Shown in pieces: positions 1,883 to 54,366 of a stretch of DNA of 64,000 bases. The DNA lies in the IMG/VR virus record IMGVR_UViG_3300045988_109352. The stretch is one strand, 5' to 3'. Source of the stretch: a virus. The position numbers were made by a program, and so were the translations under genes. Below the pieces are notes generated by a model. That model saw only the letters and a list, made by a program, of their open reading frames with translations. It was not told the DNA's origin and ran no database searches. The number at the start of each line of letters is the position of its first letter. Positions within the stretch are counted from its first letter, which is position 1.

Positions 1883-2018
1883 GGCGTTTATATCCAAGCT
1901 TACACTTGAACAACTTGACGTTTCATCGAGCCGCTACTTCTTAGGGAGCTTGCGCCCCGGTCGTCCATAGTTGGGTTCTCACCGTCCAATCCCCGATACG
2001 CCATCGGTTGGGTTAATA
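1883..2018 (-). ncRNA. putative omegaRNA (reRNA) scaffold overlapping the tnpB-1 3' end
   Basis: Position expected from the known TnpB architecture. GC-rich hairpins in an AT-rich genome. The sequence is conserved in the protein-less copy at 374-509. Confidence 0.4.
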
Positions 2019-3120
2019 AATTCTGTGCTTGTAGTCCGAAGCGTTTGATGTTTCGGGCTGCAAGTAAATCTCTGTCATTTGTAGTTCCACACTTGGGACA
2101 AGTCCACTTGCGGTCGGAAAGTTTAAGCTCTCTATTTATATATCCGCACTCACACATCTTTGAAGACGGTTCAAAGCGACCTATGCGAATTAAAGTCTTT
2201 CCGTACCATTCACACTTGTATTCAAGCATGGAGAAGAAAGTAGCCCAACCAACAGAACCTATTGAACGTGCAAGCTTGTGATTTTTCATCATGCCGTCAA
2301 TGTTCAAGTCCTCTATGATTATCGCTTGGTTTTCGCGAACGAGCTTTGTACTTACTTTGTGTAAGAAGTCTGTCCGTTGGTTGGTTACTTTCTCGTATTG
2401 TCTTGCTAACTGCTTTCTAAGTCTTTCATGTCTGTTTCCTCCCTTCTTGGATTTACTGAAACGCTTTTGGATTATCTTCAATCGGTCAGTAGCTTTTTCA
2501 AGATATTTAGGGTTTTGAAATACGTCCCCATTTGAACATACTGCAAAGTCCTTTATTCCCACATCTATGCCGATTGTACCCTCATAAGTTATCGGTTCTT
2601 TAGATGGAAGTTCTTTCCCATCCTCTACCAATACACTGACATAGTATTTATCTGTCTTGGTTTTAGATACCGTGACAGACCTTACATCTCCTTCAAACTT
2701 TCTATTCTCAGATAGCTTCACCCATCCGATTTTAGGAAGTTTAATCCGGTTGTTATCCAAGTCTACTTCTACTGAGTTGATAGCCTTATATGCTGCTCTA
2801 CTTTTGTGTTTGGACTTGAATTTAGGAAAGCCTTTCTTCTCACGGAAGAATCTTGTAAACGCGCTGTCCAAGTTCCGGATAGACTGCTGCAAACACTCAT
2901 TGCTCACTTCTTTCAGCCACTCCATGCCTTTCTCCTTCTTCAAGTCGGTAAGCATCTTGCATAGGTCAACCGCATTTATTCGCTTTCCTTCGTTCTGATA
3001 GGCTTCTATTCGCTTTGCCAAAGCCCAATTATAGATAAAGCGTACACTTCCAAAGGACTTCTCAAAGAATATCCTCTGCTCCTTAGTAGGCTTCAATCTA
3101 TATTTATAGGCTTTCAACAT
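1900..3120 (-). CDS. tnpB: RNA-guided endonuclease TnpB (IS605 OrfB type)
   Basis: MLKAYKYRLKPTKEQ N-terminus. RuvC motifs IGIDVG, IIIEDLN and NDRDLLAARNI. Zn ribbon CECG...CPKCG. Confidence 0.9.
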   Translation of the reverse strand: MLKAYKYRLKPTKEQRIFFEKSFGSVRFIYNWALAKRIEAYQNEGKRINAVDLCKMLTDLKKEKGMEWLKEVSNECLQQSIRNLDSAFTRFFREKKGFPKFKSKHKSRAAYKAINSVEVDLDNNRIKLPKIGWVKLSENRKFEGDVRSVTVSKTKTDKYYVSVLVEDGKELPSKEPITYEGTIGIDVGIKDFAVCSNGDVFQNPKYLEKATDRLKIIQKRFSKSKKGGNRHERLRKQLARQYEKVTNQRTDFLHKVSTKLVRENQAIIIEDLNIDGMMKNHKLARSIGSVGWATFFSMLEYKCEWYGKTLIRIGRFEPSSKMCECGYINRELKLSDRKWTCPKCGTTNDRDLLAARNIKRFGLQAQNLLTQPMAYRGLDGENPTMDDRGASSLRSSGSMKRQVVQV

Positions 3121-19589: not shown

Positions 19590-20015
19590 TTAATCATCTA
19601 TCTCAAATAGGTTCTTCTTTATCTGCCAATACTCTTTGACTTCCGGCACGCTGATAACTCCCTTGTTGCTATTAATGTCGTACACTTGAAAGTACAGAAT
19701 TGTCTTCTTGCTTTTGTTGGCATATACTTGCACGAAAAGTCCAGTAAACAACTCAAACTCACCTTGCATGAATTGTTCCGCTTTGAATGTGCCTTGTATC
19801 TTATGTCCGTCTTGGATTATAGTACAAGTCATATCCCGGTTGAACTTCATTCTAACCAAGTTTGGCGGTGTACTTACATTGTCGTTGTGGTCTTGTACAT
19901 ACTGTACAGTCCATGTACCATACAAATAGTTAAGCTGGCTCTTCCAATCTGTTTGCGCCTGCATACTTGCCATCAGTGAAAGCAAGCCAATCAATGTCAT
20001 TACTAACTTCTTCAT
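19590..20015 (-). CDS. secreted protein with signal peptide (lipocalin-like size)
   Basis: ATG at 20015. MKKLVMTLIGLLSLMASMQAQ signal sequence. Confidence 0.55.
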   Translation of the reverse strand: MKKLVMTLIGLLSLMASMQAQTDWKSQLNYLYGTWTVQYVQDHNDNVSTPPNLVRMKFNRDMTCTIIQDGHKIQGTFKAEQFMQGEFELFTGLFVQVYANKSKKTILYFQVYDINSNKGVISVPEVKEYWQIKKNLFEIDD

Positions 20016-20272
20016 TGTTTTATCAGTTTTTCGATTATTGTTCTTAGTTCCTTCTCCCAATCCTTGTTCCCGTGCATAGGATAACTTAGCTGATGCCAAT
20101 TATGGTAGTCAAATAGCTTCATCCGGCATGGGTAGTAATCAAACAGCTTCTTCTCATTGTGGAATACTCTGATATGCTTTCCCTCATACTCTCCGATATT
20201 ACTCGATTTAAGTTTATAGGCTGCCAAAATTTCGTTGAACTTCTCCATTGGAGTAAATATACTCTTCGCCAT
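20012..20272 (-). CDS. hypothetical protein
   Basis: ATGA overlap with the downstream gene. Confidence 0.45.
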   Translation of the reverse strand: MAKSIFTPMEKFNEILAAYKLKSSNIGEYEGKHIRVFHNEKKLFDYYPCRMKLFDYHNWHQLSYPMHGNKDWEKELRTIIEKLIKQ

Positions 20273-20275
20273 AAT

Positions 20276-20578
20276 TCAGTCCTCCTTTTCGGGAGTATAA
20301 CCTCCCATGAGTCTATAGTTAGGTATCAGCTTGTCGATGCTCTTAATCTCAAATCGTGTATAAGTCACACAATTCGGATATATCTTACAAAGTCCGTTGA
20401 TTATATACTTGTCATTGAAGTACATTTCAAGCTTCATGTGTACCTCGGATGCGGAATATTGCCTTTTGTCAATAAAGAATATCCCGTCTATTTCACTTGA
20501 AAATCCTCTGTTTGTAACTCTGAACAAGTCGCGAAGTTCTTGTATCACGTCTTGTATGCTAATCGGTTGTTTTTCCAT
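20276..20578 (-). CDS. hypothetical protein
   Basis: The track start at 20584 is TTG; the first ATG is at 20578. Confidence 0.5.
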   Translation of the reverse strand: MEKQPISIQDVIQELRDLFRVTNRGFSSEIDGIFFIDKRQYSASEVHMKLEMYFNDKYIINGLCKIYPNCVTYTRFEIKSIDKLIPNYRLMGGYTPEKED

Positions 20579-29257: not shown

Positions 29258-29746
29258 ATGACATATTTATATCTGTTATCTTTATTAACACTTGTTGCAT
29301 ACATTGGTTATGCTTTGAAGGTATGCGAACTGCCTGCATCGCTTTCAGATACCTACTACATTTTGAAGGAGAAGAGCCGTCCTTCTTGGCTGTTTCAGCT
29401 TGCTATGGTTGTCTGTCCTATGCTTCTTGTTCCCGTATGGCTTGAATTGTCTTCTGACAGTGTTCAGTTTCTTTCTTTCTTGGCTTGTGGCGGTCTGATG
29501 TTTGTCGGTACAGCGCCTTTGTTCAAGGAGGAGTTTCAGAGGAAGGTTCACTTCGGTGGGACTATAGTAGCTGGATTGGGCACTACCTTGTGGCTGTTGT
29601 TCTCTGGTATGTGGTATATCCCTTCCGCTTTCTTCTTTGTGTCGGGCATTGTCATGCTGTTCAAGAAAAAGTGGCTGTTCTGGCTGGAAATGGCGTTGTT
29701 TGCGAGTGCTTATACTGGATTGTTAGTTAAAATGATGTTTGGATGA
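29258..29746 (+). CDS. multi-pass membrane protein
   Basis: Five or so hydrophobic spans. Confidence 0.6.
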   Translation: MTYLYLLSLLTLVAYIGYALKVCELPASLSDTYYILKEKSRPSWLFQLAMVVCPMLLVPVWLELSSDSVQFLSFLACGGLMFVGTAPLFKEEFQRKVHFGGTIVAGLGTTLWLLFSGMWYIPSAFFFVSGIVMLFKKKWLFWLEMALFASAYTGLLVKMMFG

Positions 29747-30018
29747 TGGAAAGAAAACTGTTTGATGGATGGGGTCTGTTTATAACCAAAGACTTGTCCT
29801 ATGTAGGCTTTTTCACGGATGATAGAGTTTGCTTGATAGATATAGAGGCTGATGGAATACAAATCATTGAGAAATCCGATTTCAAGGAGGACTATTTACT
29901 TTCCCCTACCGAGGAGGATATGGTTAAGTTCCGTGCTACTTTAGAAAAAGCTGGAAGTGGGTTTAGAGATAAGATTTTGGAAATAATGAAAAAAAATAGT
30001 TATGAATTTGAGTTTTAA
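29743..30018 (+). CDS. hypothetical protein
   Basis: Overlapping start and stop. Confidence 0.5.
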   Translation: MMERKLFDGWGLFITKDLSYVGFFTDDRVCLIDIEADGIQIIEKSDFKEDYLLSPTEEDMVKFRATLEKAGSGFRDKILEIMKKNSYEFEF

Positions 30019-30247
30019 ACAAGCTATAGACCTTCACCAGTGCCTTCGCTACATTGAAGCTTGCCAAAAGGCTATATACGGTAACGACAATACGAGTGAC
30101 AACATAGAGGTCGGGGACGTATCTGTGACGTTTCACTTTGACGATGGCGAAATCTTTTTGGATAGCTTGATTGTTTCCGGTTCGGAGTGCAAGAAGGGGC
30201 GCATTGATGTTGAAGACTATTTAGTTGAAGACTATTTAAGAGAATGA
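30002..30247 (+). CDS. hypothetical protein
   Basis: Packed plus train. Confidence 0.45.
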   Translation: MNLSFKQAIDLHQCLRYIEACQKAIYGNDNTSDNIEVGDVSVTFHFDDGEIFLDSLIVSGSECKKGRIDVEDYLVEDYLRE

Positions 30248-30248
30248 G

Positions 30249-30614
30249 ATGGAGTTATATTTAGAACCTATTTACCGTGACCGGAATTGCAAGGGGCAGT
30301 TCAACAAGGGTCACAGATTGAGATTTGGAGGGCGACCTTGTTCCGAGGAAACTAAGAAGAAGCTGTCGGAGATTATGAAAAAGAGGATAGCTGACGGTTC
30401 TACCAAGATGCCTCATTTTCAGAAGGCTGTAATAGTCATTAAGGACGGTCGGATTGTGGGTCACTACCCTTCCGCTACGGAGATGGCTCGCAGGCTGGGA
30501 ATTACCAAGTCGATTATTATCCGTGTTTGCTTGGGTATTCGGAAAAGCTATCGTGGATGCAATCTTTTTTACGAGTGTGATTCAGATAAATGGATGAAAC
30601 TAATTAAAGAATGA
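30249..30614 (+). CDS. homing-endonuclease-type DNA-binding protein without a nuclease domain (NUMOD3 plus NUMOD1-like HTH)
   Basis: GHRLRFGGRPCSEETKKKLSE (NUMOD3-like) and SATEMARRLGITKSIIIRVCLG (NUMOD1/IENR1-like). No GIY-YIG or HNH motif. Confidence 0.5.
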   Translation: MELYLEPIYRDRNCKGQFNKGHRLRFGGRPCSEETKKKLSEIMKKRIADGSTKMPHFQKAVIVIKDGRIVGHYPSATEMARRLGITKSIIIRVCLGIRKSYRGCNLFYECDSDKWMKLIKE

Positions 30615-30615
30615 G
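30608..30615. repeat. 8-bp direct repeat AGAATGAG, copy 1, flanking T2
   Basis: Identical octamer at 31937-31944. Confidence 0.85.
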
Positions 30616-31936
30616 GGTAACTATATAGCACTTTGCACTAAAAATTATATAAATAAATAGGAAATTTAAAATATTCTATTTATATTTGCGACATGTATTT
30701 AACGGAGCAACATATAATAACAGTTAATGACAAGAGGTACAAGGATTTAGACCGGATTTGTTTCTTATCCAAGAACTTGTATAATGCGGCTTTATATATC
30801 ATAAAGCAGGAGTTTCTTGTTTCCGGGAAATGGATAAGGTCTACAGAACTTAACAAAAAGATGGTTGCAGAAAACAACGTTGATTTTAGGGCTATGAGTG
30901 GTTCTTCTTCCCAGCAAATTTTAATGGCTTTGGATAAGAATTTGAAATCCTATTTTTCTGCCATTAAAGCATGGAAAAGGGATAACAAGAAATTTACTGG
31001 ATGCCCTAAATTCCCGAAATACAAGCATAAAACAAAAGGAAGAAATATATTTACTTATTCTTATGTACAATTTAAACATAGAGGGGAGTACATTTATTTC
31101 CCGAAGAAAGAAGGTCTGCAACCGTTGAAAACAAGATGCAAGGAAGGAACAGTTAAGCAAATAAGGTTTGTACCGAAAGCAGATTGTTATGTAATAGAAC
31201 TGGTATATGAATCAGAAGTAAAGGAAAAGCTACCGGATAACAATAAGTATATGTCTATTGATTTGGGAGTTAACAACCTTGCTTCTATTGTAACTAATAC
31301 GAGTAACAAGGCTGTTTTGGTAGACGGAAAGAAATTGAAGTCCATCAACCAGTATTACAATAAGAAAAAGGCTAAAGTTCAATCACAATTAAAGAAAACA
31401 AATGGAAAGGAAAATTCGAGACGGTTAATGAACCTTACAAGAAAAAGAAACAATAAGGTCAAGGATTATTTGCATAAGGCAAGCAAGGAAATTGTAAGCA
31501 TGTGTTTGAAAGACAATATAACTACATTGATAGTAGGACATAATGACGGATGGAAACAGGAAGTGGATATGGGTAAAAGAAACAATCAGAACTTTGTTTC
31601 AATTCCGTTTGAAACGTTCATATCAATGTTAAGGTACAAATCTGAAAGACAAGGACTAAGATTTGTTGAAATAAACGAATCTCACACGTCAAAATGCAGT
31701 TCTTTAGATTTAGAAGAAGTAAAACATCATGATAGTTATATTGGAAAGAGAGTAAAAAGAGGTCTTTTCAGAACAAAGAACGGGATTTTACTCAATGCAG
31801 ATATAAACGGAGCCTACAACATCATGAGAAAAGTAAAGGGGGATGCAGCAATGCCACCCTATAGAGGGTTTGGGTATAACCCAGTTAAGAAATTTATTAA
31901 CAAATAGATACAAGTGTAAACTTGTATATAATTACC
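30616..31936 (+). mobile_element. TnpB-only element T2 with imperfect terminal inverted repeats and an 8-bp flanking duplication
   Basis: GGTAACTATATAGCACTTTGCACT (30616-39) against the reverse complement of 31913-36, GGTAATTATATACAAGTTTACACT, matches 19/24. Deleting it restores a compact stop/start junction. Confidence 0.8.
30693..31907 (+). CDS. tnpB: TnpB-family RNA-guided endonuclease, variant subtype
   Basis: IDLGVNN (RuvC-I), YLHKASKEIV, INESHTSK and NADINGAYNIMRKV (RuvC-III). The canonical IxEDLN position reads LIVGHNDG, and there are no CxxC Zn-ribbon pairs. Confidence 0.8.
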   Translation: MYLTEQHIITVNDKRYKDLDRICFLSKNLYNAALYIIKQEFLVSGKWIRSTELNKKMVAENNVDFRAMSGSSSQQILMALDKNLKSYFSAIKAWKRDNKKFTGCPKFPKYKHKTKGRNIFTYSYVQFKHRGEYIYFPKKEGLQPLKTRCKEGTVKQIRFVPKADCYVIELVYESEVKEKLPDNNKYMSIDLGVNNLASIVTNTSNKAVLVDGKKLKSINQYYNKKKAKVQSQLKKTNGKENSRRLMNLTRKRNNKVKDYLHKASKEIVSMCLKDNITTLIVGHNDGWKQEVDMGKRNNQNFVSIPFETFISMLRYKSERQGLRFVEINESHTSKCSSLDLEEVKHHDSYIGKRVKRGLFRTKNGILLNADINGAYNIMRKVKGDAAMPPYRGFGYNPVKKFINK

Positions 31937-31944
31937 AGAATGAG
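31937..31944. repeat. 8-bp direct repeat AGAATGAG, copy 2
   Basis: Identical to 30608-30615. Confidence 0.85.
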
Positions 31945-31947
31945 ATT

Positions 31948-32331
31948 ATGAACATGTTCAATACAAACTCTACTACCGTCATGCAGTCCAAGTTGTTGCT
32001 TGGCTTGGGTATTGACCCTCGGACGGCAGATTTGACCTTGCACGACGAGGAACGCGACATACCTCTTTGGAGTATGATGCGTCTGATAGACATGATTCCC
32101 GGCTTTATTGTGGATGATGATGGTTATACATACTCATTTACCATAAGTAAGGGGACATACGTGTATAATCTGTCCTATACCCGTAAGACCAAGCATGGGG
32201 AGAAGACTTTAATCTCCTTTCACAATCCGGTAGACAGCTTTGGCGAAACGGTCATTCTGATTATCAAATGGCTGTTTGATATGAAGCTGTTTCCGACCAA
32301 ATACATGGCGAAATACGTTAAAAAGAAATGA
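31948..32331 (+). CDS. hypothetical protein
   Basis: First ATG outside the T2 right end (MNMFNTNSTT...). Confidence 0.5.
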   Translation: MNMFNTNSTTVMQSKLLLGLGIDPRTADLTLHDEERDIPLWSMMRLIDMIPGFIVDDDGYTYSFTISKGTYVYNLSYTRKTKHGEKTLISFHNPVDSFGETVILIIKWLFDMKLFPTKYMAKYVKKK

Positions 32332-32534
32332 GGTTGACTATTTACTGGACTAAGGAGGCTATGCACAAGCCTTCCGATGGTTCACCAAGAATGTATGACC
32401 GTATTGTCAAACGCTTCGGATTCTCTGATTATATCAGCATCAATGGTGAAACACCCGTTGATGTTAAGGAGATTGACCTTCCGGATTTGAAGGTTGCCGA
32501 GGAGCGTGGCTACATACAGATAAGAAACAAGTGA
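32328..32534 (+). CDS. hypothetical protein
   Basis: Packed plus train. Confidence 0.45.
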   Translation: MRLTIYWTKEAMHKPSDGSPRMYDRIVKRFGFSDYISINGETPVDVKEIDLPDLKVAEERGYIQIRNK

Positions 32535-32535
32535 T

Positions 32536-33168
32536 ATGAATGAATATGAAGATACACATGTAGTTGTTTCCGAACGGGAAGCACTAATATCCACTGTCAG
32601 CTATAATATTATGGCTACTAACGACCTTGCTTGTGCTACAGTGATATTTGCACTGTTTAGGTTAAGGAAAAGTCCCTTTTACCGCTTTCGTGTAAAGCAG
32701 TTGGCGAATAAGGTTGAGCTTGAAAGAAGAAAGTATGAAAAGGTAATAAATACCCTCATGGCTGATTCCTCTGCTAAGTTTGCCGATTCCAATGATATTT
32801 TCATGGACGCTATTCAAGATGAAGTTGATGCTCTGTTTAATTCTATTAAAGGTGAGTATGACAAGTCTTGTGTCGAGGATTCAGAGCTTTTCAGTTGGCT
32901 GGAAATGGCAAGGACTATGTGTGATTATAGTTGTTGCCAGTTGAAGTACCGCAGGCAGGAGATGATTGCCAAATACCCTTCGTTCAAGAGGCTTAAATTT
33001 GCCCATTTAGACTTGAATAGGATGTCACAGCTAATGAATGAGCTTATGAAGGCTTTAGTTCCCGATGTGGATTTGAATACTGATGCGTGCAACAAGGCTA
33101 TTCGGGAATTAGGAAAAAAGCTGATTGACCCGGATATTATTGCTAAGGCATTGTTAAGACAAGAATAA
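32536..33168 (+). CDS. hypothetical protein
   Basis: 210-aa ORF. Confidence 0.55.
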   Translation: MNEYEDTHVVVSEREALISTVSYNIMATNDLACATVIFALFRLRKSPFYRFRVKQLANKVELERRKYEKVINTLMADSSAKFADSNDIFMDAIQDEVDALFNSIKGEYDKSCVEDSELFSWLEMARTMCDYSCCQLKYRRQEMIAKYPSFKRLKFAHLDLNRMSQLMNELMKALVPDVDLNTDACNKAIRELGKKLIDPDIIAKALLRQE

Positions 33169-44347: not shown

Positions 44348-45553
44348 CTACCCACGAACTAAAGATTCGTGGGCTTCCGACTTCACAGAGGAATGCCCTT
44401 TCAAAAGATTAGGTCTTCTATCCTCTCCATCGGTGTAATCGGCAGTCCCTGCCGATATATTATTTAATCCTAATTTTAGGATATTGATAGCAGCATTTAC
44501 ATCTCTATTATGATGTGTACCGCAAGATGGGCAACCCCATTCTCTTACTTTCAAGTCTTTTATTTCGCTATTACGATAGCCACAAACATTACAAAGCTGA
44601 GAGGATGGAAAAAACCTATCAATCTTAACTACATTTCTACCATTCCAATTAGCCTTATATGTTAGCATAGTGACGAATGTCCCCCAACTTGCATCAGTAA
44701 TTGATTTAGCAAGTTTATGGTTTCGTACCATACCTTTTACATTAAGGTCTTCAATACAAATGGTATCGTAGTTAGAGATTAGAGAATGAGAACACTTATG
44801 CAAGTAGTCCATACGGCAAGCAGAAATCTTCTCGTGAAGTTTGGCGACTTTGAGCCTTTGGTTTTCGTACTCATTACTGCCTTTCTTTTTTCTTGAGAGG
44901 TGTTTCTGTGCTACTGCAAGTTTCTTCTCATATCTCTTTGTGTATCTATTATTCTTGAATACTTCACCATCAGATGTTATCAGTAGGTCTTTCAAACCTA
45001 AATCTACACCAACTGCTTTATTAGCAGGTGCAAGTTCTTGATACTCCTCTATTGTGAATACTGATACAAAATACTTTCCTGTTGGAGTTTTAGTTAGACT
45101 AACTTTGCCCATCTTACCTTTGATTTCTCTATGCAGACGGATAGTTATACCACTCTTGAATTTAGGTAGCCACAACTTACTATCTTCAATAGTTGCAAAT
45201 TGGGGTACGGTAAATGTATTCTTACCTTTCTTTGAGTGATAGTTAGGGAACTTCGCTCTCTTTTGGAAGAAATTAGTGTATGCAGTTTCAAGATTACGCA
45301 AAGCAAATTGAAGTGTTTGAGAGTTTACTTCTTTAAGCCAAGCGGTTTCTTCTTTTTTCTTTAATTCAGTTAAAGCCTTTGCCTGAGCATAGTAGTTATC
45401 ACTCTCTCCTTCCTCTTTATATTGCTCTTGCCTTTGATTAAGGAAATAGTTATAGACAAAGCGAGTACAGCCGAAGTGCTTCGCCAACAATTCCATTTGG
45501 GAAGCATTTGGATATATCCTAAATCTGTATGTTCTATTTATCGTCTTAATCAT
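44348..45553 (-). CDS. tnpB: RNA-guided endonuclease TnpB
   Basis: ATG at 45553 ([16 protein letters not shown]...). Motifs [22 protein letters not shown]...CPSCG and [10 protein letters not shown]. Confidence 0.9.
44351..44373. repeat. subterminal hairpin, right end of the IS
   Basis: CCCACGAA-CTAAAGA-TTCGTGGG. Same loop and stem ends as the hairpin at 46047. Confidence 0.75.
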
Positions 45554-45595
45554 AGTGCAAATATACATATAAGTATTTACAAAAACAAGAAATGT

Positions 45596-45627
45596 TTTGT
45601 AAAAGTGAAATATTTTCGTTAATTTTG
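45596..45627 (+). promoter_or_regulatory. Bacteroidota-type promoter for tnpA
   Basis: TTTG (45596-99), 20 nt, then TAATTTTG (45620-27). ATG at 45632. Confidence 0.55.
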
Positions 45628-45631
45628 TAGT

Positions 45632-46036
45632 ATGAGGAGTGATTATGAGCATAGTAACCGACACAAATATTACTTGAAGTGTCATTTGATATTCTGTATT
45701 AAGTACAGAAAGAAGTTGCTCGTAGGCAAATTCAATGATACTATCAAATGTATTTTAAAGGGTATCGCAGAAAAGTCTGATTTTGATATTGAAATAATGG
45801 AGTCAGACAAAGACCACATCCATTTTCTCATCAACTATCCACCGAACATATCAGTAACATCTATTGTTAGAAAACTCAAGCAAGAGAGTACGATATTCGC
45901 TTGGAAACTATTTGAGAGTAAGTTGAGAAAAGAGTTTTGGGTTGAACGCACATTATGGAGTGATGGATATTTCTGTTGCTCAATAGGAGAAGCAAGTCCA
46001 GAAACAATTAGGAAATATATTGAACAACAAGGTTAG
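45632..46036 (+). CDS. tnpA: IS200/IS605-family Y1 (HUH) transposase TnpA
   Basis: [10 protein letters not shown] (HUH), [14 protein letters not shown] and [26 protein letters not shown] (catalytic Tyr region). Confidence 0.9.
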
Positions 46037-46069: not shown

Positions 46070-46271
46070 TTTTCGGCACTTAAATATAAATGGATATAGT
46101 CAATGGGTAAGTAACTGTTTTAAAGATTATTATGTAATACAATACGAACGTTTAATACCCGTATTATGGCGAGGTATTCAGCAAGTAGATAATGAGGTAG
46201 CTACCCTCAAAAAGAAGATAGCTACCTTAGAAAAAGAACTTAGTTCTGTAAAGAGGCAACTAAGCCTTTAA
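46065..46271 (+). pseudogene. orphan C-terminal fragment resembling a tail-fiber intramolecular chaperone (peptidase S74) tail
   Basis: YYVIQYERLIPVLWRGIQQVDNEVATLKKKIATLEKEL resembles S74 domain ends (..Y..LIPLLI.AIQEL plus a coiled coil). The annotated start lies in the IS hairpin. No upstream part is present. Confidence 0.4.
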
Positions 46272-49200
46272 GCCTATTAATCTCTGATTTAGCATGTTCC
46301 AATTCCTTTCTCATTCGTTCTTGCTCTGATTCAACAAGACGGATAGAAAGGATATTGGCTTGCACAGAACCAATGATTGTTGCGATAAGGTCGGGAGATA
46401 AATAATTCAAGCTACCATATCCATATTCATCCTTTTCGTGACAGAAATTTGTGATACCAGCTTTCACCGCATTTTGATATACAAGTCCGGTATGACGTTT
46501 ATTGTCTATCCTATCTTGGTATAAATCCAATGCTTTTTTGTTATAATTATAGTCATAAACTCTGCCAAGTTTTAGTAGTCTTTCTCGGTAATCTATAAGC
46601 CCATCGTAATTCTCTTTTAATCTAAAGTCAGAAGTAGCTTTAGCGGTGATTGCAGCCGTAGCAGTAATACTTCCAGTAAAAGCCCATGTGATACCATCAT
46701 ATTGCATAACATACGATTTATTTGTAGCACTTGTCGGATTAGCAGTACCTCTCCACCAATACCAAGACCCGTTTGAATGACAGCCAAGTCCCATTGTATA
46801 ATTACCTCCAACGATTTCAATACTATCATCGCTCGTATTTGAGAACCTTGCTCCTACATTAAAAGAATTAGCACCACTTCCAGTTATTCCCGTACTATTT
46901 ATCCAACCATGCAGGGTGCAATCTCCAAATTCCATATTTGCCCAAGATGAACCGCTTCCTGCCCGCCAATGCCATTTTTTAGGAACAGACCTACCGCCAT
47001 AACTTGCACCTCTATAATTAACATGAAAATCAGTGCCTCCAGCTATAATAATCTCATTTCCACCGCTTGAAAGTTCCAAATAAGAACCATTTTGGGTTAT
47101 AGTAGATGGATTCATATAAAGACCAGAATCAGCATAGACCCAAGATTGAATATACGCATCTATAAATCTATTGTTAAATGAACCTATTCTGTAATTATTA
47201 TTGCTTAACGGAAAGATATTACCAGAATACATTCCACCATTAAAAGTTGCAGCCCCTCCAAAAGTACTTGTAGAACTTATGTCGAGATTATAACTATAAA
47301 CACACTTCCATCTTAAATCAGTAGTTCCCGAAGTTATTGAATTACTAAGATGGGGCTTTATATTTTGATAATATGTATCTTCAATAAAAGATACATATGT
47401 AATTCCTCCTTGTGTTAGTGTTGTACTAAGACTACTATTAATCTCAGAGTTATTAATAACTTCTGCATTATTTCCATTTGCCTTAGTTTTATATTTTATA
47501 CGGTATGGCAAAGTGATAGTTGATAATCCTCCTGCAATAGTTGAACGAATAACCCCTCTAAAATAATAACTATCCATTCTATTATCCCGATATGGGATTT
47601 CAATACAATAATACCAAATGTCATTATACTTACATTTTTTTAATACATATTGATTAGATAAAAAAGAGCTTATTGATTTTATATTCCAAAGAGTAGTATT
47701 ATAAATAGTCGAAATCTTCACATCAACCCAAAAGCATTGATTACCTCCATTTGTATATCCAGATATAGTACCATCTATAGTATTAAGACCGCCTAAATTA
47801 GTTGTAGCAGGAATAGGTAACAACAGCAATACTTCATAGCTATAACTTCCTACACCACCCCAAACTCTATGTTGAAAATGTTCATCTCCACATAGAAGCG
47901 AAAACTCTCCATTTAATCCAATTATATTTTTATTTACTACTAATTCGGTTGATATAGTAGATGTATTGTTGTCCCATTTTTGCCACGGATTTGAATAAAG
48001 TCCAGCATAAGCATAAGAAATAGATTGTCCAGAACCATAAAAACCAAATTTTACTGGGGTAGAAGTCTTATTTATATTAGCACCAAATCCTCTCTCCCAT
48101 CCTCCGGTTATAGAGCTACTAATATCTATATAAAATTCTCCCCATTGAGAAGATATACGTGCAGTTGTTTGCCCAGTACCTACGACTAAGTTTCCCGTCA
48201 TAGTATCACCAGCCTTTTTGACGTAGGTAGAATTTAGGATGCTACTGTAGTTCTCTGAATCAATGAGTTGTTTCCACGAACCAAAACTATATATATTATA
48301 GTCTTTATTGCGGTAATAAATATGTCCTTCTTTACCAGAAGAAAAATAAAGTTGAGGTTGCCAATGACTTGAAAGAGTACTACATATTTCCATGATATTA
48401 CCATAAGTCGTAGGCATCGTACTCCCTAAGCTATAAATATCAAAGAAGTTGACCCTACTACTTCCTGCTCTATTCGTATTATTTATATTATCTGCACTCG
48501 TATTTGCGACTTTGACACTTCCAGAAGCATAATTAGTGCTATTATTTGAATGTAGGATAGTCCAAGTATTATAGGTTAAGAAGTTATTCCCTATAATAAA
48601 ACTATATTTCCCAGCAGCATCATTCCAAACTTCTGTGCTTCCCAATGGATTTAAGAATATACGTTGTACAGTATTTTGATACCCAATTTCGGCAATTCTT
48701 GTATCTGATGCGGTATTATTCCAAATGATACCTCTTCTATAATTAGAAGTATCTGTTGCCATTCTAATAGAAAATTCAGCCGGATTTTTCAACTGTAATC
48801 TGCCAGTCATTTCATCGCCTGCCTTCTTCACATATACGCTGGATAAAGCGTTTATGTCTTTTTGAAGGGCATATGGGCTTCCATTTACACTTCGTACACT
48901 AATACTATCCCCTTTGCTTGCAATTGAACTGTTTACTTCTGAATTTACAACTGTACCAGTATTGGAAGTATAGTAATGCACTTTACTGAAATTAATGTTT
49001 AATTCTGAACCCATAAAGTACATACTAACAGCTTGTGTATTTGTATGTCTTAAAGCCCACCATTTTTCACCATTATATGTACAAGTTACTAAAGACCAAT
49101 CACTTCCTATTCCTGCTGTATCAAAATTGCCATAAAACTCATAATCAGAAGTAGACCATCTTGAAAAAAACAAGTCAATTTCTGCATATTGATAACGGGC

Positions 49201-52200
49201 AAGACCATTACTTTCGGTATATAATTTACCATTGATTCTATGTAACATATTTATTTGCGCATCTCTCCATAATAAAATAACAACCCATTGGAAATCCGAT
49301 TTATAACCTAAATATGTTATTTTAGATGGATTCAAATTTCCTGCGTGCCATATTTTATACCAAGTTCTGAAAGAACTTGCACCAACACCTCTAAAGTAAA
49401 AATCATCAGAATTATAGGCTGCTCTTAATTGGAATAACCTATTTGCCGCAGAACCAATGTTTAATACAGTATCATTAGCACCAGTAGTTCCATATGCAGT
49501 ACCATTTGCCTCCCATACAGATGTCTTAGATGCTGTAAATGTAGATACAGTATCTATCGCAGTAGAGGTTATTTGAGCATATCTCTCTAAATGGTTGGCG
49601 GTAGTAGCAATATTGCCTTTAGTTAATGTCAGTACTCGCGTACTATTGTCATAAGTAGCGTTGGTAAGGACATTTCCCGTTCCAGTAATAGTAGTGGAAG
49701 GGTAGTTTGGGAGCGTAATATACTTGCTTGTGTCTGGCGCATAAGTTTGGCTGTTAACTTTGATACCAGCAATGCCAGTACCTCCACCACCATTCTTTTC
49801 AAGTTCAGTAATTCTACTTGCCAACTTGTTGATAGTGTATGCATTGAAAGTATCTGATAATGTTGAATCAGCGAATGTGCCACCTAAACTTGAATATCCA
49901 TAAACGGTTTGGATAAGCCCACCGCCTCCTCCACCTCCACTACCAGAACTGATACCTTTTGCAGATACAGCACCGCTTGCGTAGAAGTTAACAGCCGAGC
50001 CATCTTCTTTGTAGACTTTAATAGCATTATTGGCACTATCCACTCCAATGCGATACCCAGTTGTTCCTATTTCGATGTAGTCGGAAACTGTCAATTTCTG
50101 CATTGGATATTGTGGTATCATGTAGCTAATAGTCTTCGGAGTTCCAGAACGATATACAATCTGGAATAGAGAAACATAGTCGCCAAGCTGATTTTCTTTG
50201 ATGATGAATGATTGTGGGTCAGCATGGAAAACACCATCAGTCCCCCACCATACAGCACCACTTGCAAGGTAGCCAGAGCCATCCATACGAATGATAGCCT
50301 TTGCTACATCTGATGGCATGTTTGCTTCTGTATAATCTGCTCTATCCTTCATAGAACCTCCATACCAAGAAGCAATACCTCCACCGACCTTAGTAGCATC
50401 ATAGACACCATTCATACCGGACATTACTTTAAATCCAGCTACCGGGTCAGTATATCCCAGCATGTTTAACGCATTCTGAATAACGCCACCTTCGATTGTG
50501 GTACTCTCTTTCCACGCTTTCTTTAGATATTCATAACCAGCCAAATCTTTTTTAACGGTATCTACTGCTGCCTTAGCTGCGTCACTGATGGCATTCAAAG
50601 CTGCCGTTCTTTGATTGTAGTATGCAGATTGCTTTGAAGCGAAGTCAGAAGGTATAGTTATATTTTCGGGAGTAGAAGCAGATAATGTAACCAACACTGC
50701 ACGATAATTGCTATGAGCATTCAGATAACCCGTAGGGCTACCCAATGAATACAAAGTATATCCTGCTGTAATATTTGTCTTGTCAGCGTCTATACGAACT
50801 ATTTCATCTTTGATTGATTGCTTTTCAGTAGGAGATATAACCCCATCTTCTGCCCACTTATCCAATCTTTGTTTAGCTGCTTCCGCTTCTGCTTTAGCTG
50901 CATCTGCCGCCTTTTGAGCCTCTTCCGCAGCTTTCTTCGCATCTTCTGCGGAAGTGTTTATTTTGTCTTGGATAAAGTTGTTGGCTGCATTCAAATAAGC
51001 TATAAAATCTCCATATTTGGTATTGAAGGTGTCGTACCTACCATCTACCAAAGCGACTTCCGTTGAGGTAGCTACTCCGTCAGCTATGGCATCATCAATA
51101 GCAGTAATAAGCTCGGTAGTTGCCACATTAAATCCATCATAAGCGGTTTTTAGTTCTACCTTAGCAGTACCGGACAATAAAGGATTAGCATAAACCTTAG
51201 AATAAGATTCCGCTACGCTCTTCTGTATTGATTTGATTGAGTTCAAATATTTCTCAATTGCGGCAGCTTCTTGTCTGTCAACAATACCGTCTTTAAAGGC
51301 TTCGTCTGTGAAGTCTTTCATATTGGTTACAGTCTGCTTTGCGTCATTGGCTTCTTTCTTAGCTTCTTCTGCTGCCTTTTGCGCTTTAGCTGCTTCAAGA
51401 TAAGCCTTTGAAGTGTCATTGTCTGCAATCTGCGTCCATCCCCATGTATCTCCCGTCTTTACCCATCTCCATGATTTTCCTGCATCGGGAGTAGTTTCAT
51501 CATCGACATATTCTTGGATATTGGTAAATACATCACCTTCATGCCGTTTTTTCAAAGCTTCTGTGTTCCAATCAACTGCTGGCTGATTAGTAAGAGTTGG
51601 TGTATATTCTCCGTACCAAGTTTCCTTTACTCCATCTATCTGGTCTTGAAAGCTGTTGAATGTTTCCTCAACGTCTTTGCCGGATTTAGTTACAAGTTTA
51701 CCTTTTATCTCAACACCAGTTACCGTATCAAACTTCATATAGCTGCTCTTATCTCTTGCTCCGATATAAGAGTTGCCATAGACGTTCATATAAGCGAGAT
51801 TTGTGGTCTTATCAACACCATAGGACACATACTCTTTGTTGAGGTATGAATAGCTGTTTATGCCAGCATATAAAGTCATACTTGGCGAGAAAGTGTCAAC
51901 TGCACTAAAGATAATTGCATTCTGTCTTGTCTTGTCCTCTACATGAGTAACACCATTTGCATCAACAAAGGTCTTATTACCTAATTGGCAAATGGTATCT
52001 CCTACTCGTGGTGCATCACTGGCTGCATCAGCATCAGTTTTTGAGATGTCAATGTAATTAGTTCCTACGTTTACGACTAAACGCCAGAAGTAATGATTTG
52101 ACACATTCTCATAAACTCCCTCCTTAATATTGAAGTCTTGTGCTAAAGCCATATCCCCAGCGCGGAAACGATTATCTAACGCTTCTGTACCATCATCTTG

Positions 52201-54366
52201 ATAGAAGTAACATCTCCAATAGTCCCAAACATTCTCGCCAGTCTTGTTACCTTCTTCGTCAAGTATATCATTTCTATCTTCTATCTTGATACATTCGATT
52301 GCACCACCGGGAGTAATCATTTGGCGACCTCCGATAACTCCGGTCTTGATAATCTCCAAAGCATAGAACATGGCTTTCATTCTTACTGTCAGATAATCAA
52401 GCTCTGCATGTGATTTTCCGTCTGTATCTGCATAGAATATACCGCCCGTACTTCCGGTCACATAGCTACCGACTTTCAATCCACGCAAGAAAGTTATCAT
52501 TCCTTGTGCGGTATCATCTTTAACTCTGCTGAGTTTTTTGTTCAGTTCGCCTACAATGTCAAGTCCATAAATAGCTTGTAACTGTGCTACTTGGCTTCCT
52601 AACTTGCTAAGTCCATCAGCTATCTGTCCTATCTGATTCAGTACAATAGACACTTCGTCCGTTAAGGTAATATTATAAGTAGGAAGGGGATTTGTACCAT
52701 ATTGGATTGACATTTCCTTTACGGATAATTCCATAGCGTCCTCATTGTCTTTATACAAGAATCTGACAATCGTATTAGGCTTAATCTGCGCAAGAATTGC
52801 TTGGTTTGTTTCCAAGAAGTGTTCGTCGAAGCTCAAAGGATAGTCATACAAAGGCATATTATTTTCAAGCATATATCTTTTCATGGCAACGTCCAAACGT
52901 TCTTGTGCCTTGTCTATATATGCTTGTGGCATTTCAATGTGCAATATGACAAACTTGTCGCCAGTTTTAACTTGCTGGAACTTGCTTGGCATTATCGTAC
53001 CAAATGTATCTAAGTCCTTTGTCAGTTTAATAGTAATAGCTTGGTCTGTACTGTCTGGATATTTAGCATAGTCCCTCTGTTCTCCATTTGGTTTGAATAC
53101 AATGTTTCCAGCTTCATCAGTTACATAGAAGTTCTTTTTTACATCTTCCCAATCTACTGCTACCTCGTAGTTAGCTCCTAATGTGTCACCGGACTTCATG
53201 GAGAAGGTCATTCCACTTGTAACTGCTGCTTGTGCATATAAGTCAAAGCCAAGAGGATAAAGCGTCACATCAAAATACGACTGTCTAACCTCTCCCGTTT
53301 CGGGGTCAATATAATCATCCCAGCCACCTTCCGGTACTATTACTTCTTTGAACAAGTCAATAGCTTGTCCCTTGTATGTCATACCTTTAATAGTAGGTTG
53401 TATGCTGGAAAATTCTTGGATATGGAATACTGGTGCAAGAGGATTGATAGGAGTAGGATAGCTGCTATCTGCGTCATAGTAGTCAATAAGAGGGTCTTTA
53501 GAACCAAACAAGACTTTATTTCTAACAGCCTCTACATATACTGATGGCATTAACGTGTCACGAGTATATGGGTGCTCAATGCGATTTCCGTCTGCATCTG
53601 TAATTATAGGATAGCCATACGGAATATTAATGTTGCTACCATATCCAGCAATACGAGTAATGACCTTATTATTCTTTGGTGTGCAATCATTGTTTTTCAG
53701 TCCTACACCTTGTCCGAATTTGAATATGTATGGCTTGTTTTCATTGTCAAGTATTTCCTTAGATGGCTTGCCAAACCAAATAGTATATCCATCAACTACA
53801 AATGGAACTTTCCATGTTTCGTATGCAGTCTTGCAAACGTCTGAAATAAATTGATTACTGAATGATAACACATCACTCATTGTCCCATCATCTACAAATG
53901 TTGGCTGTAACTTGCAAGTCCATTTAGTTCCGACAAGACATGAGTTGATTTTTTGAACGAACATGCTTAATGTACCAATCCACGAGAAAGTCCGTTTTTC
54001 GCTGCGATAACTTTCCTCACTGCTACTAATAGCAATGTCAGTAAAGGGAATGTTGTACAATTCAATCATTTCATGGTAGAAAGTACAACTATATTTAGTC
54101 ATTCCCTTTGCCTCGCTGTTTTCCGAAGTCATTCCTTTTCTAACAACTACGGGAGGATTTTTAAGAATGTACTTTATTCCTTTATACTCTACATATTCTT
54201 GCAGAGTAAACGAAAGTGAATTGTCTTTATAATAAAACTCTCCTTCTATCTTGTCATTTAACGACATAACAATAGTTGAGAAAGTGTGTTTTCTCAAACT
54301 GATGTCGTGGAAGGGAGTGCCATCTTCATTGTATATATTCAGTATAGGGTTTACTTCGTTCGCCAT
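46240..54366 (-). CDS. giant tail fiber / tail-associated protein (2708 aa) with a C-terminal S74 chaperone domain
   Basis: The N-terminus resembles phage minor structural / Tal proteins. Further features: A/E/K-rich coiled coils, poly-Gly linkers, two YVKKAGD(E/T)MTG(R/N)L fiber-repeat restarts, and SDFRLKEN near the C-terminus. Confidence 0.8.
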   Translation of the reverse strand: MANEVNPILNIYNEDGTPFHDISLRKHTFSTIVMSLNDKIEGEFYYKDNSLSFTLQEYVEYKGIKYILKNPPVVVRKGMTSENSEAKGMTKYSCTFYHEMIELYNIPFTDIAISSSEESYRSEKRTFSWIGTLSMFVQKINSCLVGTKWTCKLQPTFVDDGTMSDVLSFSNQFISDVCKTAYETWKVPFVVDGYTIWFGKPSKEILDNENKPYIFKFGQGVGLKNNDCTPKNNKVITRIAGYGSNINIPYGYPIITDADGNRIEHPYTRDTLMPSVYVEAVRNKVLFGSKDPLIDYYDADSSYPTPINPLAPVFHIQEFSSIQPTIKGMTYKGQAIDLFKEVIVPEGGWDDYIDPETGEVRQSYFDVTLYPLGFDLYAQAAVTSGMTFSMKSGDTLGANYEVAVDWEDVKKNFYVTDEAGNIVFKPNGEQRDYAKYPDSTDQAITIKLTKDLDTFGTIMPSKFQQVKTGDKFVILHIEMPQAYIDKAQERLDVAMKRYMLENNMPLYDYPLSFDEHFLETNQAILAQIKPNTIVRFLYKDNEDAMELSVKEMSIQYGTNPLPTYNITLTDEVSIVLNQIGQIADGLSKLGSQVAQLQAIYGLDIVGELNKKLSRVKDDTAQGMITFLRGLKVGSYVTGSTGGIFYADTDGKSHAELDYLTVRMKAMFYALEIIKTGVIGGRQMITPGGAIECIKIEDRNDILDEEGNKTGENVWDYWRCYFYQDDGTEALDNRFRAGDMALAQDFNIKEGVYENVSNHYFWRLVVNVGTNYIDISKTDADAASDAPRVGDTICQLGNKTFVDANGVTHVEDKTRQNAIIFSAVDTFSPSMTLYAGINSYSYLNKEYVSYGVDKTTNLAYMNVYGNSYIGARDKSSYMKFDTVTGVEIKGKLVTKSGKDVEETFNSFQDQIDGVKETWYGEYTPTLTNQPAVDWNTEALKKRHEGDVFTNIQEYVDDETTPDAGKSWRWVKTGDTWGWTQIADNDTSKAYLEAAKAQKAAEEAKKEANDAKQTVTNMKDFTDEAFKDGIVDRQEAAAIEKYLNSIKSIQKSVAESYSKVYANPLLSGTAKVELKTAYDGFNVATTELITAIDDAIADGVATSTEVALVDGRYDTFNTKYGDFIAYLNAANNFIQDKINTSAEDAKKAAEEAQKAADAAKAEAEAAKQRLDKWAEDGVISPTEKQSIKDEIVRIDADKTNITAGYTLYSLGSPTGYLNAHSNYRAVLVTLSASTPENITIPSDFASKQSAYYNQRTAALNAISDAAKAAVDTVKKDLAGYEYLKKAWKESTTIEGGVIQNALNMLGYTDPVAGFKVMSGMNGVYDATKVGGGIASWYGGSMKDRADYTEANMPSDVAKAIIRMDGSGYLASGAVWWGTDGVFHADPQSFIIKENQLGDYVSLFQIVYRSGTPKTISYMIPQYPMQKLTVSDYIEIGTTGYRIGVDSANNAIKVYKEDGSAVNFYASGAVSAKGISSGSGGGGGGGLIQTVYGYSSLGGTFADSTLSDTFNAYTINKLASRITELEKNGGGGTGIAGIKVNSQTYAPDTSKYITLPNYPSTTITGTGNVLTNATYDNSTRVLTLTKGNIATTANHLERYAQITSTAIDTVSTFTASKTSVWEANGTAYGTTGANDTVLNIGSAANRLFQLRAAYNSDDFYFRGVGASSFRTWYKIWHAGNLNPSKITYLGYKSDFQWVVILLWRDAQINMLHRINGKLYTESNGLARYQYAEIDLFFSRWSTSDYEFYGNFDTAGIGSDWSLVTCTYNGEKWWALRHTNTQAVSMYFMGSELNINFSKVHYYTSNTGTVVNSEVNSSIASKGDSISVRSVNGSPYALQKDINALSSVYVKKAGDEMTGRLQLKNPAEFSIRMATDTSNYRRGIIWNNTASDTRIAEIGYQNTVQRIFLNPLGSTEVWNDAAGKYSFIIGNNFLTYNTWTILHSNNSTNYASGSVKVANTSADNINNTNRAGSSRVNFFDIYSLGSTMPTTYGNIMEICSTLSSHWQPQLYFSSGKEGHIYYRNKDYNIYSFGSWKQLIDSENYSSILNSTYVKKAGDTMTGNLVVGTGQTTARISSQWGEFYIDISSSITGGWERGFGANINKTSTPVKFGFYGSGQSISYAYAGLYSNPWQKWDNNTSTISTELVVNKNIIGLNGEFSLLCGDEHFQHRVWGGVGSYSYEVLLLLPIPATTNLGGLNTIDGTISGYTNGGNQCFWVDVKISTIYNTTLWNIKSISSFLSNQYVLKKCKYNDIWYYCIEIPYRDNRMDSYYFRGVIRSTIAGGLSTITLPYRIKYKTKANGNNAEVINNSEINSSLSTTLTQGGITYVSFIEDTYYQNIKPHLSNSITSGTTDLRWKCVYSYNLDISSTSTFGGAATFNGGMYSGNIFPLSNNNYRIGSFNNRFIDAYIQSWVYADSGLYMNPSTITQNGSYLELSSGGNEIIIAGGTDFHVNYRGASYGGRSVPKKWHWRAGSGSSWANMEFGDCTLHGWINSTGITGSGANSFNVGARFSNTSDDSIEIVGGNYTMGLGCHSNGSWYWWRGTANPTSATNKSYVMQYDGITWAFTGSITATAAITAKATSDFRLKENYDGLIDYRERLLKLGRVYDYNYNKKALDLYQDRIDNKRHTGLVYQNAVKAGITNFCHEKDEYGYGSLNYLSPDLIATIIGSVQANILSIRLVESEQERMRKELEHAKSEINRLKGLVASLQN

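Follow-up and report, generated by a model that had tools for sequence, protein, structure and literature searches.

TnpB, the ancestor of Cas12, is known almost wholly from carriers moved by a Y1 (IS200/IS605) or a serine (IS607) transposase, which are excised without a scar and make no target-site duplication (TSD). Which kind of carrier, then, harbors a tnpB gene flanked by both terminal inverted repeats (TIRs) and a TSD-like repeat? The question is raised by a DNA stretch of 64,000 nt (hereafter, the window) from the IMG/VR record IMGVR_UViG_3300045988_109352, described as a Bacteroides phage. Here, a 1321-bp element (30616–31936) with tnpB as its sole gene is flanked by copies of AGAATGAG at 30608–30615 and 31937–31944; its arms, the longest inverted repeat of the region, are complementary at 19 of 24 positions and share the tip GGTAA. 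These statements of an earlier reading of the sequence (the original prediction), i.e., the octamer positions, the 1321-bp span, the lone open reading frame (ORF) for a 404-aa TnpB and the 19/24 inverted termini, were all confirmed. It is now firmly established that the carrier is a non-autonomous, recently active IS1595-family element residing in gut phages. The whole of the best explanation, comprising a non-autonomous IS1595-family element with TnpB cargo and a presumed omegaRNA, mobilized in trans and spreading by homing, is regarded as highly probable.

The boundaries of the element are borne out by an empty site and by homology to other copies. A megablast search of GenBank phages with positions 29700–32900 retrieved C3_41T2LP, a cultured Bacteroides phage whose host is B. 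uniformis MB20-41 and whose flanks are 96% identical to those of the window and align in two pieces, skipping approximately 1.33 kb. Its junction reads ctaattaaAGAATGAGattatgaacatg, with one AGAATGAG rather than two, as had been foreseen for an uninterrupted relative (empty site ttaaAGAATGAGattatg). The element was inserted at the AAAGAATGAG/ATTATG junction between two phage genes, duplicating AGAATGAG. At least 259 relatives of the TnpB occur in the viral contigs of IMG/VR; 80 of them, with amino-acid identities of 83–96%, were fetched. For nearly every copy in phages, the blastn alignment with the window element starts at element base 1 and ends at element base 1321.

The duplications recur at other sites. 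Elements with these termini were found in 67 distinct flank contexts on gut phage contigs, 29 of which display perfect (8/8) flanking repeats and four more 7/8 repeats, compared with 8/8 matches in 0.07% of 1474 shifted control comparisons. The repeats are always exactly 8 bp long, except for one case of 9 bp, and are unrelated in sequence between sites (AATGATAG, AGGAAATG, ATATTTGA, AACAATTG, AATTATAA and AAGTTAAG, as well as AAACAGTT, AAAGTAAA, AAATAACA, ATAACAAG, AAAGAATT and others). Since the repeats differ from site to site yet keep the length of 8 bp, they represent true duplications; the flanks of other copies thereby bear out the fixed-length duplication read from the window. Movement must have been recent, since nearly identical copies (up to 99.5%, e.g., L046 vs. 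L051) reside at unrelated sites.

Could the inverted repeats and the octamer have arisen by chance on either side of a gene that was acquired horizontally? The octamer itself is not rare, with four occurrences in the window vs. 3.2 expected, and it is present at the neighboring gene junction (30241) as well, so its significance derives from its placement and from the comparative data, not from its count. Still, dozens of copies have their homology breakpoints precisely at the tips of the TIRs, perfect duplications far exceed the control level in 29 independent contexts and a precise empty site exists; chance is, hence, an exceedingly improbable explanation.

Two groups of related loci deviate from this pattern. 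The copies L078–L082, tried as candidates for longer elements, were rejected: the first 23 nt of their left TIR are lost and ordinary phage genes (C5 methyltransferase) lie upstream. These copies are immobilized, with a conserved left flank (the phage C5-methyltransferase region) and varying right flanks. In L112–L115, a solo TnpB (P0101, 61% identical) on a phage-like contig of approximately 137 kb has completely different inverted ends (AAATGATTTTCCGCAAGAATACCCC, 24/25) and is, nonetheless, again bordered by a repeat of 8 nt, ATTTCTAA. The combination of TIRs with an 8-bp repeat may also occur with ends of other types or with other transposases.

The transposase that belongs to these ends was found outside the window. 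Viral contigs were scanned for the TIR pattern GGTRAYTATATANNANTTTRCA, and pairs at spacings other than 1.3 kb were inspected. The element of L166 (5708–8778, 3071 bp) has GGTAACTATATACCAGTTTGCA at both tips, a perfect TSD (TTTTCATA) and small cargo ORFs besides a 305-aa transposase, which is recognized by Pfam DDE_Tnp_IS1595 (1e-48) and by NCBIfam NF033547 transpos_IS1595 (216 bits; cut-off 75). That of L195 (1973–5482, 3510 bp) encodes a 307-aa homologue of the L166 transposase (NF033547, 193 bits). The original prediction had proposed a DDE-type carrier with TIRs and a fixed-length TSD, distinct from IS200/IS605 and IS607, and had suggested looking for a full-length relative with a transposase between the same inverted repeats; L166 and L195 are such relatives and place the carrier in the IS1595 family. 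The window TIRs match that of L166 at 22 of 24 (left) and 21 of 24 (right) positions, both being nearer to L166 than to each other, and the left end of L002 is identical to the right end of L166 at 25 of 26 nt. The ISNwi1 group presumably has an 8-bp direct repeat and ends of the form ggnnatTAT, with which GGTAATTAT and GGTGATTAT (GGTAAT-TAT and GGTGAT-TAT) agree.

Chromosomes of Tannerella, of Alistipes ihumii and of Flavobacteriales (contigs of up to 1.66 Mb) encode homologues of the transposase with 60–72% identity, annotated as IS1595 family; at the phage locus L063, a transposase gene is situated 2.4 kb from a TnpB element, outside that element. No IS1595-type transposase was found in the window by tblastn, in accord with the earlier impression that the window lacks a transposase, nor in the complete C3_41T2LP genome. 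Since the window holds no transposase, the element is non-autonomous, and since its ends match those of transposase-bearing elements, it would be moved in trans, by an IS1595 transposase supplied from a co-resident phage element or from the Bacteroidota host chromosome.

These features fit what is documented for the family: IS1595-family elements usually bear 8-bp TSDs (PMC8101967), and ISApl4, one of its members, makes AT-rich 8-bp repeats (PMC12561309). The window element resembles them in its GG-tipped TIRs and 8-bp duplications in AT-rich DNA, and it resembles passenger-carrying relatives in the family in that its siblings encode a DDE_Tnp_IS1595 transposase of ~305 aa together with passenger genes. 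It differs from them in that the window copy is devoid of the transposase, the passenger is an RNA-guided nuclease, the setting is phage genomes and a one-sided TAA lies outside the duplication.

The same ends bound several cargoes. Elements of family A, to which the window copy belongs, are 1317–1328 bp long; those of family B (1344–1349 bp) encode a TnpB 41% identical to that of A, and those of family C (1331 bp) a TnpB of the canonical IS200/IS605 type, which shares just 22% identity with that of A. Miniature inverted-repeat transposable elements (MITEs) of 183–452 bp bear these ends as well. Those of 323–452 bp are internal-deletion derivatives of family B that keep its last 88–318 nt; in L187/L146, a MITE of 334–337 bp has the same tips and the TSD TAATGTTG. 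Overall, three unrelated TnpB lineages and MITEs use common IS1595-type ends, and IS1595 elements, MITEs and several TnpB lineages actively reshape gut phage genomes.

The TnpB families also came into contact with each other. The TnpB P0087 of L116–L118 is chimeric, with a family-A-like N-terminal half and a C-terminal half nearly identical to that of family B, which implies recombination between TnpB families residing on the same transposon ends. In L184 (1729–3059) and L200 (2635–3965), a family-C element is situated within the terminal repeat of a like element (left flank ...actggtgtaaagttacatat), i.e., the insertion is nested. The window itself harbors two further tnpB genes on the minus strand, 1900–3120 and 44348–45685, encoding proteins of 406 and 445 aa of the IS200/IS605 type (NF038281, 442 and 468 bits); these are 58% and 38% identical to family C, respectively, and only ~25% identical to the TnpB at 30693..31907. 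The former gene is bracketed by a 16-nt inverted repeat (1864–1879/3150–3165) which is not of the GGTAAY type, in a region covered to 52% in C3_41T2LP. In turn, C3_41T2LP carries, at 49867–51118 (OR296439.1, L268), a 392-aa TnpB, 44% identical to that of the window, between the genes annotated as ‘outer capsid’ and ‘head fiber’. Where C3_41T2LP holds this gene, the window has an unrelated segment of 468 bp (19833–20300), a reciprocal difference between related phages. The C3_41T2LP gene (49924–51102) was considered as a second example of the element and rejected, as it is devoid of GGTAAY-type ends.

The protein encoded by the element belongs to the guided nucleases: the profiles Pfam OrfB_IS605 (6e-26), Cas12f1-like TNB (6e-12) and NCBIfam NF040570 guided_TnpB (196 bits; cut-off 100) all match. 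An alignment of 21 sequences of the A/B clade shows three invariant residues, D190 (DLGVNNL), E329 (xESxTSKCS) and D370 (NADIN). At the canonical RuvC-II position, the glutamate is replaced (LIVGHNDGWK; G282-x-N284), E329 lies in the next strand and the C4 zinc finger is lost. Clades with a ‘rearranged RuvC-II’, in which a glycine takes the place of the glutamate and an alternative glutamate is supplied, have been described and, on the basis of modeling, are predicted to be active (PMC10691335). The window TnpB fits these clades, so its activity is likewise a prediction.

The best cellular match of this TnpB, among 185,579 cellular species genomes, is 47% identical. The nearest cellular relatives of the clade, with 46% identity, reside in Thermoanaerobacter and Caldanaerobacter and adjoin an IS607-family serine transposase (NF033518, 184 bits). 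In this the clade resembles IS607-family TnpBs, and, in view of these neighbors, it appears to have moved from an IS607-type to an IS1595-type carrier. The window element differs from IS607 by its TIRs and TSD and by the lack of a serine recombinase; IS607 has neither TIRs nor TSD (PMC6188088).

These relatives, together with the hairpins inside both ends (30653–30683 and 31908–31927), are what speaks for a conventional IS200/IS605- or IS607-type (IS1341-like) element, in which a Y1 or serine TnpA would recognize the end hairpins and the octamer would stem from a similarity of target and end. This is very improbable. The flanking repeats vary by site and are always 8 bp long, the empty site has one copy, and the conserved target motif (see below) is located 8 bp from the left end instead of abutting it. 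Recognition of the ends by a Y1 TnpA, named beforehand as an outcome that would speak against a DDE-type carrier, found no support: all of the ~140 phage loci carry a solo tnpB and none of them a Y1 or serine TnpA beside the element, while the same TIRs bound IS1595 transposase genes. Since TIRs and TSDs are both lacking in the IS200/IS605 and IS607 groups (PMC6188088; PMC13565253), the window element is a member of neither.

If the TnpB is RNA-guided, its omegaRNA would be expected at the 3' end. In families A and B, the last 120 nt can be folded into stacked stem-loops with compensatory pairs (three in A, six in B). The terminal hairpin, ATACAAGT-gtaa-ACTTGTAT, displays the compensatory variants CAAG/CTTG, CCGG/CTGG and TCAG/CTGA. 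A scan of 30000–32600 against Rfam (E<=1) gave no match. Such a fold would suit an omegaRNA whose scaffold runs to the end of the transposon, which is suggestive only; the omegaRNA is, at this stage, presumed.

The flanks hold a second hint of RNA guidance. They were read toward the element and numbered from its tip, so that −8 is the first TSD base. On the left-end side of family A (27 unique sites), T was found at −11 in 24 cases, A at −10 and at −9 in 25 cases each, and A at −8 in 23 cases. The corresponding positions in family B (n = 13) are T at −11 (12 cases), A (7) or T (5) at −10, A at −9 (13) and T at −8 (11). At the ends of transposase-bearing elements (n = 16), there is only an AT-rich preference: T at −11 in five cases, A (9) or T (6) at −10, A (9) or T (7) at −9, T at −8 in 13 and A at −1 in 11. 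Hence, T at −11 distinguishes family A (Fisher’s p = 1.7e-4) and family B (p = 1.8e-3) from the transposase-bearing ends. In family A, the motif is absent at the mirrored right-side positions (left vs. right at −10 and −9, p = 1.6e-7). The trivial possibility that the TAA is the stop codon of an upstream gene was rejected, since, out of 28 sites, there is a single one where it ends an ORF of >=60 codons; the stop upstream of the window element is a TGA within the duplication, not the TAA.

The position of the motif can be accommodated by RNA-guided targeting. The omegaRNA would be transcribed through the right end, and, reading out of this end, it would have a guide made up of the right-hand duplication and the adjoining flank. 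In the window, this right flank is identical to L001 2396–2423 over its first ~26 nt, and, in the empty site of C3_41T2LP, the same sequence directly follows the TAA. For this reason, TAA (or TWA) may be read as the transposon-adjacent motif (TAM), which would act in insertion-free genomes, whereas the occupied site would be spared from TnpB cutting, since there the guide match stops after 8 nt. A likeness to the homing of IS200/IS605 elements (ISDra2, IS608 and the IS1341-type solo TnpB) is apparent in the proposed left TAM, the right-flank guide and the cleavage of empty sites. The difference is that the TAM of IS200/IS605 elements is directly adjacent to their left end, with no target duplication, while here the motif is 8 bp away and the carrier is a DDE and not a Y1/HUH element.

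An alternative retains the IS1595 carrier as described and ascribes the motif to an asymmetric target preference of the transposase, with TnpB as a passive or defensive cargo. Its merits are that the transposase-bearing ends are AT-rich too, with the bias to T at −8 noted above and T-W-A at −11..−9 in 4 of 16 cases vs. ~5% background, that ISApl4 likewise prefers AT-rich octamers (PMC12561309) and that MITEs without tnpB show the motif. Nevertheless, the motif keeps strictly to one side of tnpB, despite nearly symmetric TIRs, and it differs by TnpB family (TAAA in A vs. TWAT in B), despite similar TIRs. The duplications of family A begin with A, contrary to the preference of the transposase for T (23/27 vs. 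3/16 with A at −8, p = 4e-5), and the motif occurs in 0 of 5 transposase-bearing elements of the GGTAAC type. The motif-bearing MITEs are those keeping the omegaRNA-like 3' region: when the family-B derivatives that retain it were oriented by homology, T-W-A-T was on the same side in four of five. On balance, a preference of the transposase is an unlikely source of the motif, albeit one to be taken seriously.

According to another alternative, TnpB has a share in the choice of the insertion site, in a minimal form of TAM-directed transposition: TAM-bound TnpB would place the transpososome of IS1595 such that integration falls at a constant offset of 8 bp. The spacing between motif and insertion is indeed exact and one-sided in ~90% of TnpB-carrying copies, single-occurrence sites included, and the motif changes with the TnpB family. 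On the other hand, nothing suggests a physical link of TnpB with the transposase, no element encodes both and the MITEs devoid of tnpB display the motif as well. Moreover, selection by homing would yield the same spacing, since a guide has to begin where the transposon ends. A direct role of TnpB in site choice is, therefore, improbable.

Homing would also explain how the element spreads. Four insertion sites are common to several phage contigs; at three of them, the 1.3-kb elements are 99.9–100% identical, and the 1.5-kb flanks are 94.5–98% identical. The fourth site looks vertically inherited (element 95.7% vs. flanks ~94%). Identical elements in diverged flanks fit lateral copying into the same site, as in homing, which does not by itself implicate TnpB as the agent. 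In the proposed scenario, TnpB would cut the empty sites of co-infecting phages, into which the element would then be copied by recombination (non-restorative homing).

A number of points weigh against the reading of the locus as a trans-mobilized, homing IS1595 element. Approximately half of the contexts are without a matching right-hand repeat; most of these have one flank, the left one, in common with another copy and are, for that reason, taken as later rearrangements. A transposase and a tnpB within one element were found in 0 of 67 contexts, and mobilization in trans is deduced from the TIR identity. The omegaRNA is putative: covariation is modest, the Rfam scan was negative and the structured region lies partly within the coding sequence. 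The activity of the rearranged RuvC-II site is predicted only by modeling (PMC10691335), and RNA-guided cleavage, the TAM and homing are predictions from sequence. Finally, the transposase-only sample comprises 16 ends, 4 of which have T-W-A, and the AT-rich preference of the transposase itself (T at the first TSD base in 13 of 16) may set a part of the motif. The multi-copy chromosomal relatives P0154, P0193 and P0226 gave few extra transposase-only ends, since most had one context or an element extending beyond the fetched flanks. Mobilization in trans, the omegaRNA, the TAM and homing are, thus, to be considered as well-motivated hypotheses.

A bolder generalization can be put forward tentatively, with the doubts slightly outweighing the confidence. 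In gut phages, TnpB/omegaRNA modules of at least three lineages would have been taken up by IS1595 transposons in separate events, a partnership so far undescribed, and the logic of RNA-guided homing would have been adapted to a carrier that makes duplications: the variable 8-bp duplication would constitute the first 8 nt of guide and target and the TAM would lie just outside it; transposition would seed the sites, and TnpB would drive the spread through co-infecting phage populations. In its extreme version, TnpB would bias the insertion by the transposase as well.

How novel is such a carrier? Rare DDE-associated TnpBs with inverted terminal repeats have been reported, and so have, as a rarity, solo TnpBs whose ends are nearly identical to those of transposase-bearing elements and which are mobilized in trans (PMC10691335). 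TnpB on DDE transposons is, thus, already known but rare, and carriage by IS1595 is a variant of that kind. Accordingly, the notion of a carrier unlike the textbook ones holds, but it is less unprecedented than the original prediction assumed. Elements of IS630 and of the IS5 group make duplications of 2–3 bp. The DDE partners of TnpB named so far are ISL2, IS630 and IS1031 (PMC13565253). In common with the DDE-associated TnpBs of PMC10691335, the TnpB studied here is situated between inverted ends, with its 3' end near the transposon end, and the ends of the solo elements match those of transposase-bearing ones. Unlike them, it has IS1595 as the partner, a variable 8-bp duplication and at least three lineages, and the transposase and tnpB are never in one element. 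The texts of PMC10691335 and PMC13565253 do not mention IS1595, and no report was found, among the papers searched, of a TnpB–IS1595 link, of the phage setting or of this geometry of TAM and duplication.

A conceptual parallel is Fanzor, the eukaryotic homologue of TnpB, on DDE transposons of the Tc1/mariner type, likewise a nuclease on a carrier with TIRs and TSDs, whose targeting must accommodate the duplication (PMC3627910, PMC13565253). In Fanzor, the duplication is of fixed sequence, its 5' copy forming a part of the TAM and its 3' copy a part of the scaffold (PMC13565253). Here, the conserved motif is outside the duplication, and the duplication, being variable in sequence, must lie in the guide and target, unlike in Fanzor.

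It has been argued that DDE carriers are rare because they gain little from a module for obligate mobile element-guided activity (OMEGA) and because their target recognition is inflexible (PMC13565253); this locus, with at least 259 copies in IMG/VR, represents a natural and abundant counter-example. The cultured empty-site relative C3_41T2LP, growing on B. uniformis, makes the relation of guide and TAM to a variable duplication directly testable, along with the super-Mendelian spread of a TnpB element between co-infecting phages. The group is also a source of TnpBs that are compact and whose TAM, as predicted from the flanks, is probably short and rich in A/T.

The features of the locus are collected in Table 1.

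Table 1. Features of the TnpB-carrying element and its flanks (positions in the window).
Feature	Position	Strand	Basis or remark
T-A-A motif, proposed TnpB TAM	30605..30607	+	directly 5' of the duplicated octamer, −11..−9 from the element tip
Left 8-bp target-site duplication, AGAATGAG	30608..30615	.	single copy in the C3_41T2LP empty site
Left terminal inverted repeat, GGTAACTATATAGCACTTTGCACT	30616..30639	+	start of homology to other copies; 22/24 vs. L166 TIR
Subterminal palindrome, ATAAATAGGAAATTT a AAATATTCTATTTAT	30653..30683	+	15+15 nt, left end; conserved in the diverged copies L002 and L116
Promoter-like TATATTTG (putative)	30681..30688	+	4 nt before the tnpB ATG; equivalent TAAATTTG/TATATTTG in L002 and L116
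tnpB, 404 aa, RuvC-II-rearranged type active site	30693..31907	+	only long ORF between the arms
Presumed 3' omegaRNA scaffold part	31817..31936	+	RNAalifold: 29 pairs, 3 with compensatory changes, many G-U
Terminal hairpin	31908..31927	+	overlap with the right TIR (inner half)
Right terminal inverted repeat, reverse complement GGTAATTATATACAAGTTTACACT	31913..31936	-	homology ends at 31936; 21/24 vs. L166 TIR
Right 8-bp target-site duplication, AGAATGAG	31937..31944	.	read from the sequence
Predicted guide-encoding flank, AGAATGAGATTATGAACATG...	31937..31956	+	right duplication + ~12 nt

The element has a G+C content of ~33%, compared with ~42% in its flanks. The sequence at 30681–30688 fits TAnnTTTG, which we take to be the Bacteroides −7 promoter consensus. 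The palindrome just upstream of this motif could be an operator or a terminator insulating tnpB from phage read-through.

The surroundings of the insertion site are of some interest in themselves. The octamer AGAATGAG is also found at 30241–30248, i.e., at the gene junction before this one, where 30002..30247 stops and 30249..30614 starts (read as gAGAATGAGatgg), so it represents a recurrent stop/start junction sequence of this phage. The upstream neighbor (30249–30614) encodes a 121-aa protein with weak matches to NUMOD-like and helix-turn-helix domains (I-HmuI NUMOD-like, E = 0.003), and its counterpart in C3_41T2LP is annotated as ‘GIY-YIG nuclease superfamily’; possibly, this product is what remains of a homing endonuclease that was free-standing and lay beside the TnpB insertion site. 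A lone one-mismatch match to the TIR tip, GGTAATTATACA at 46795–46806 (minus strand), is located in the ORF 46240..54366, encoding 2708 aa, and is probably due to chance (three matches vs. 1.3 expected).

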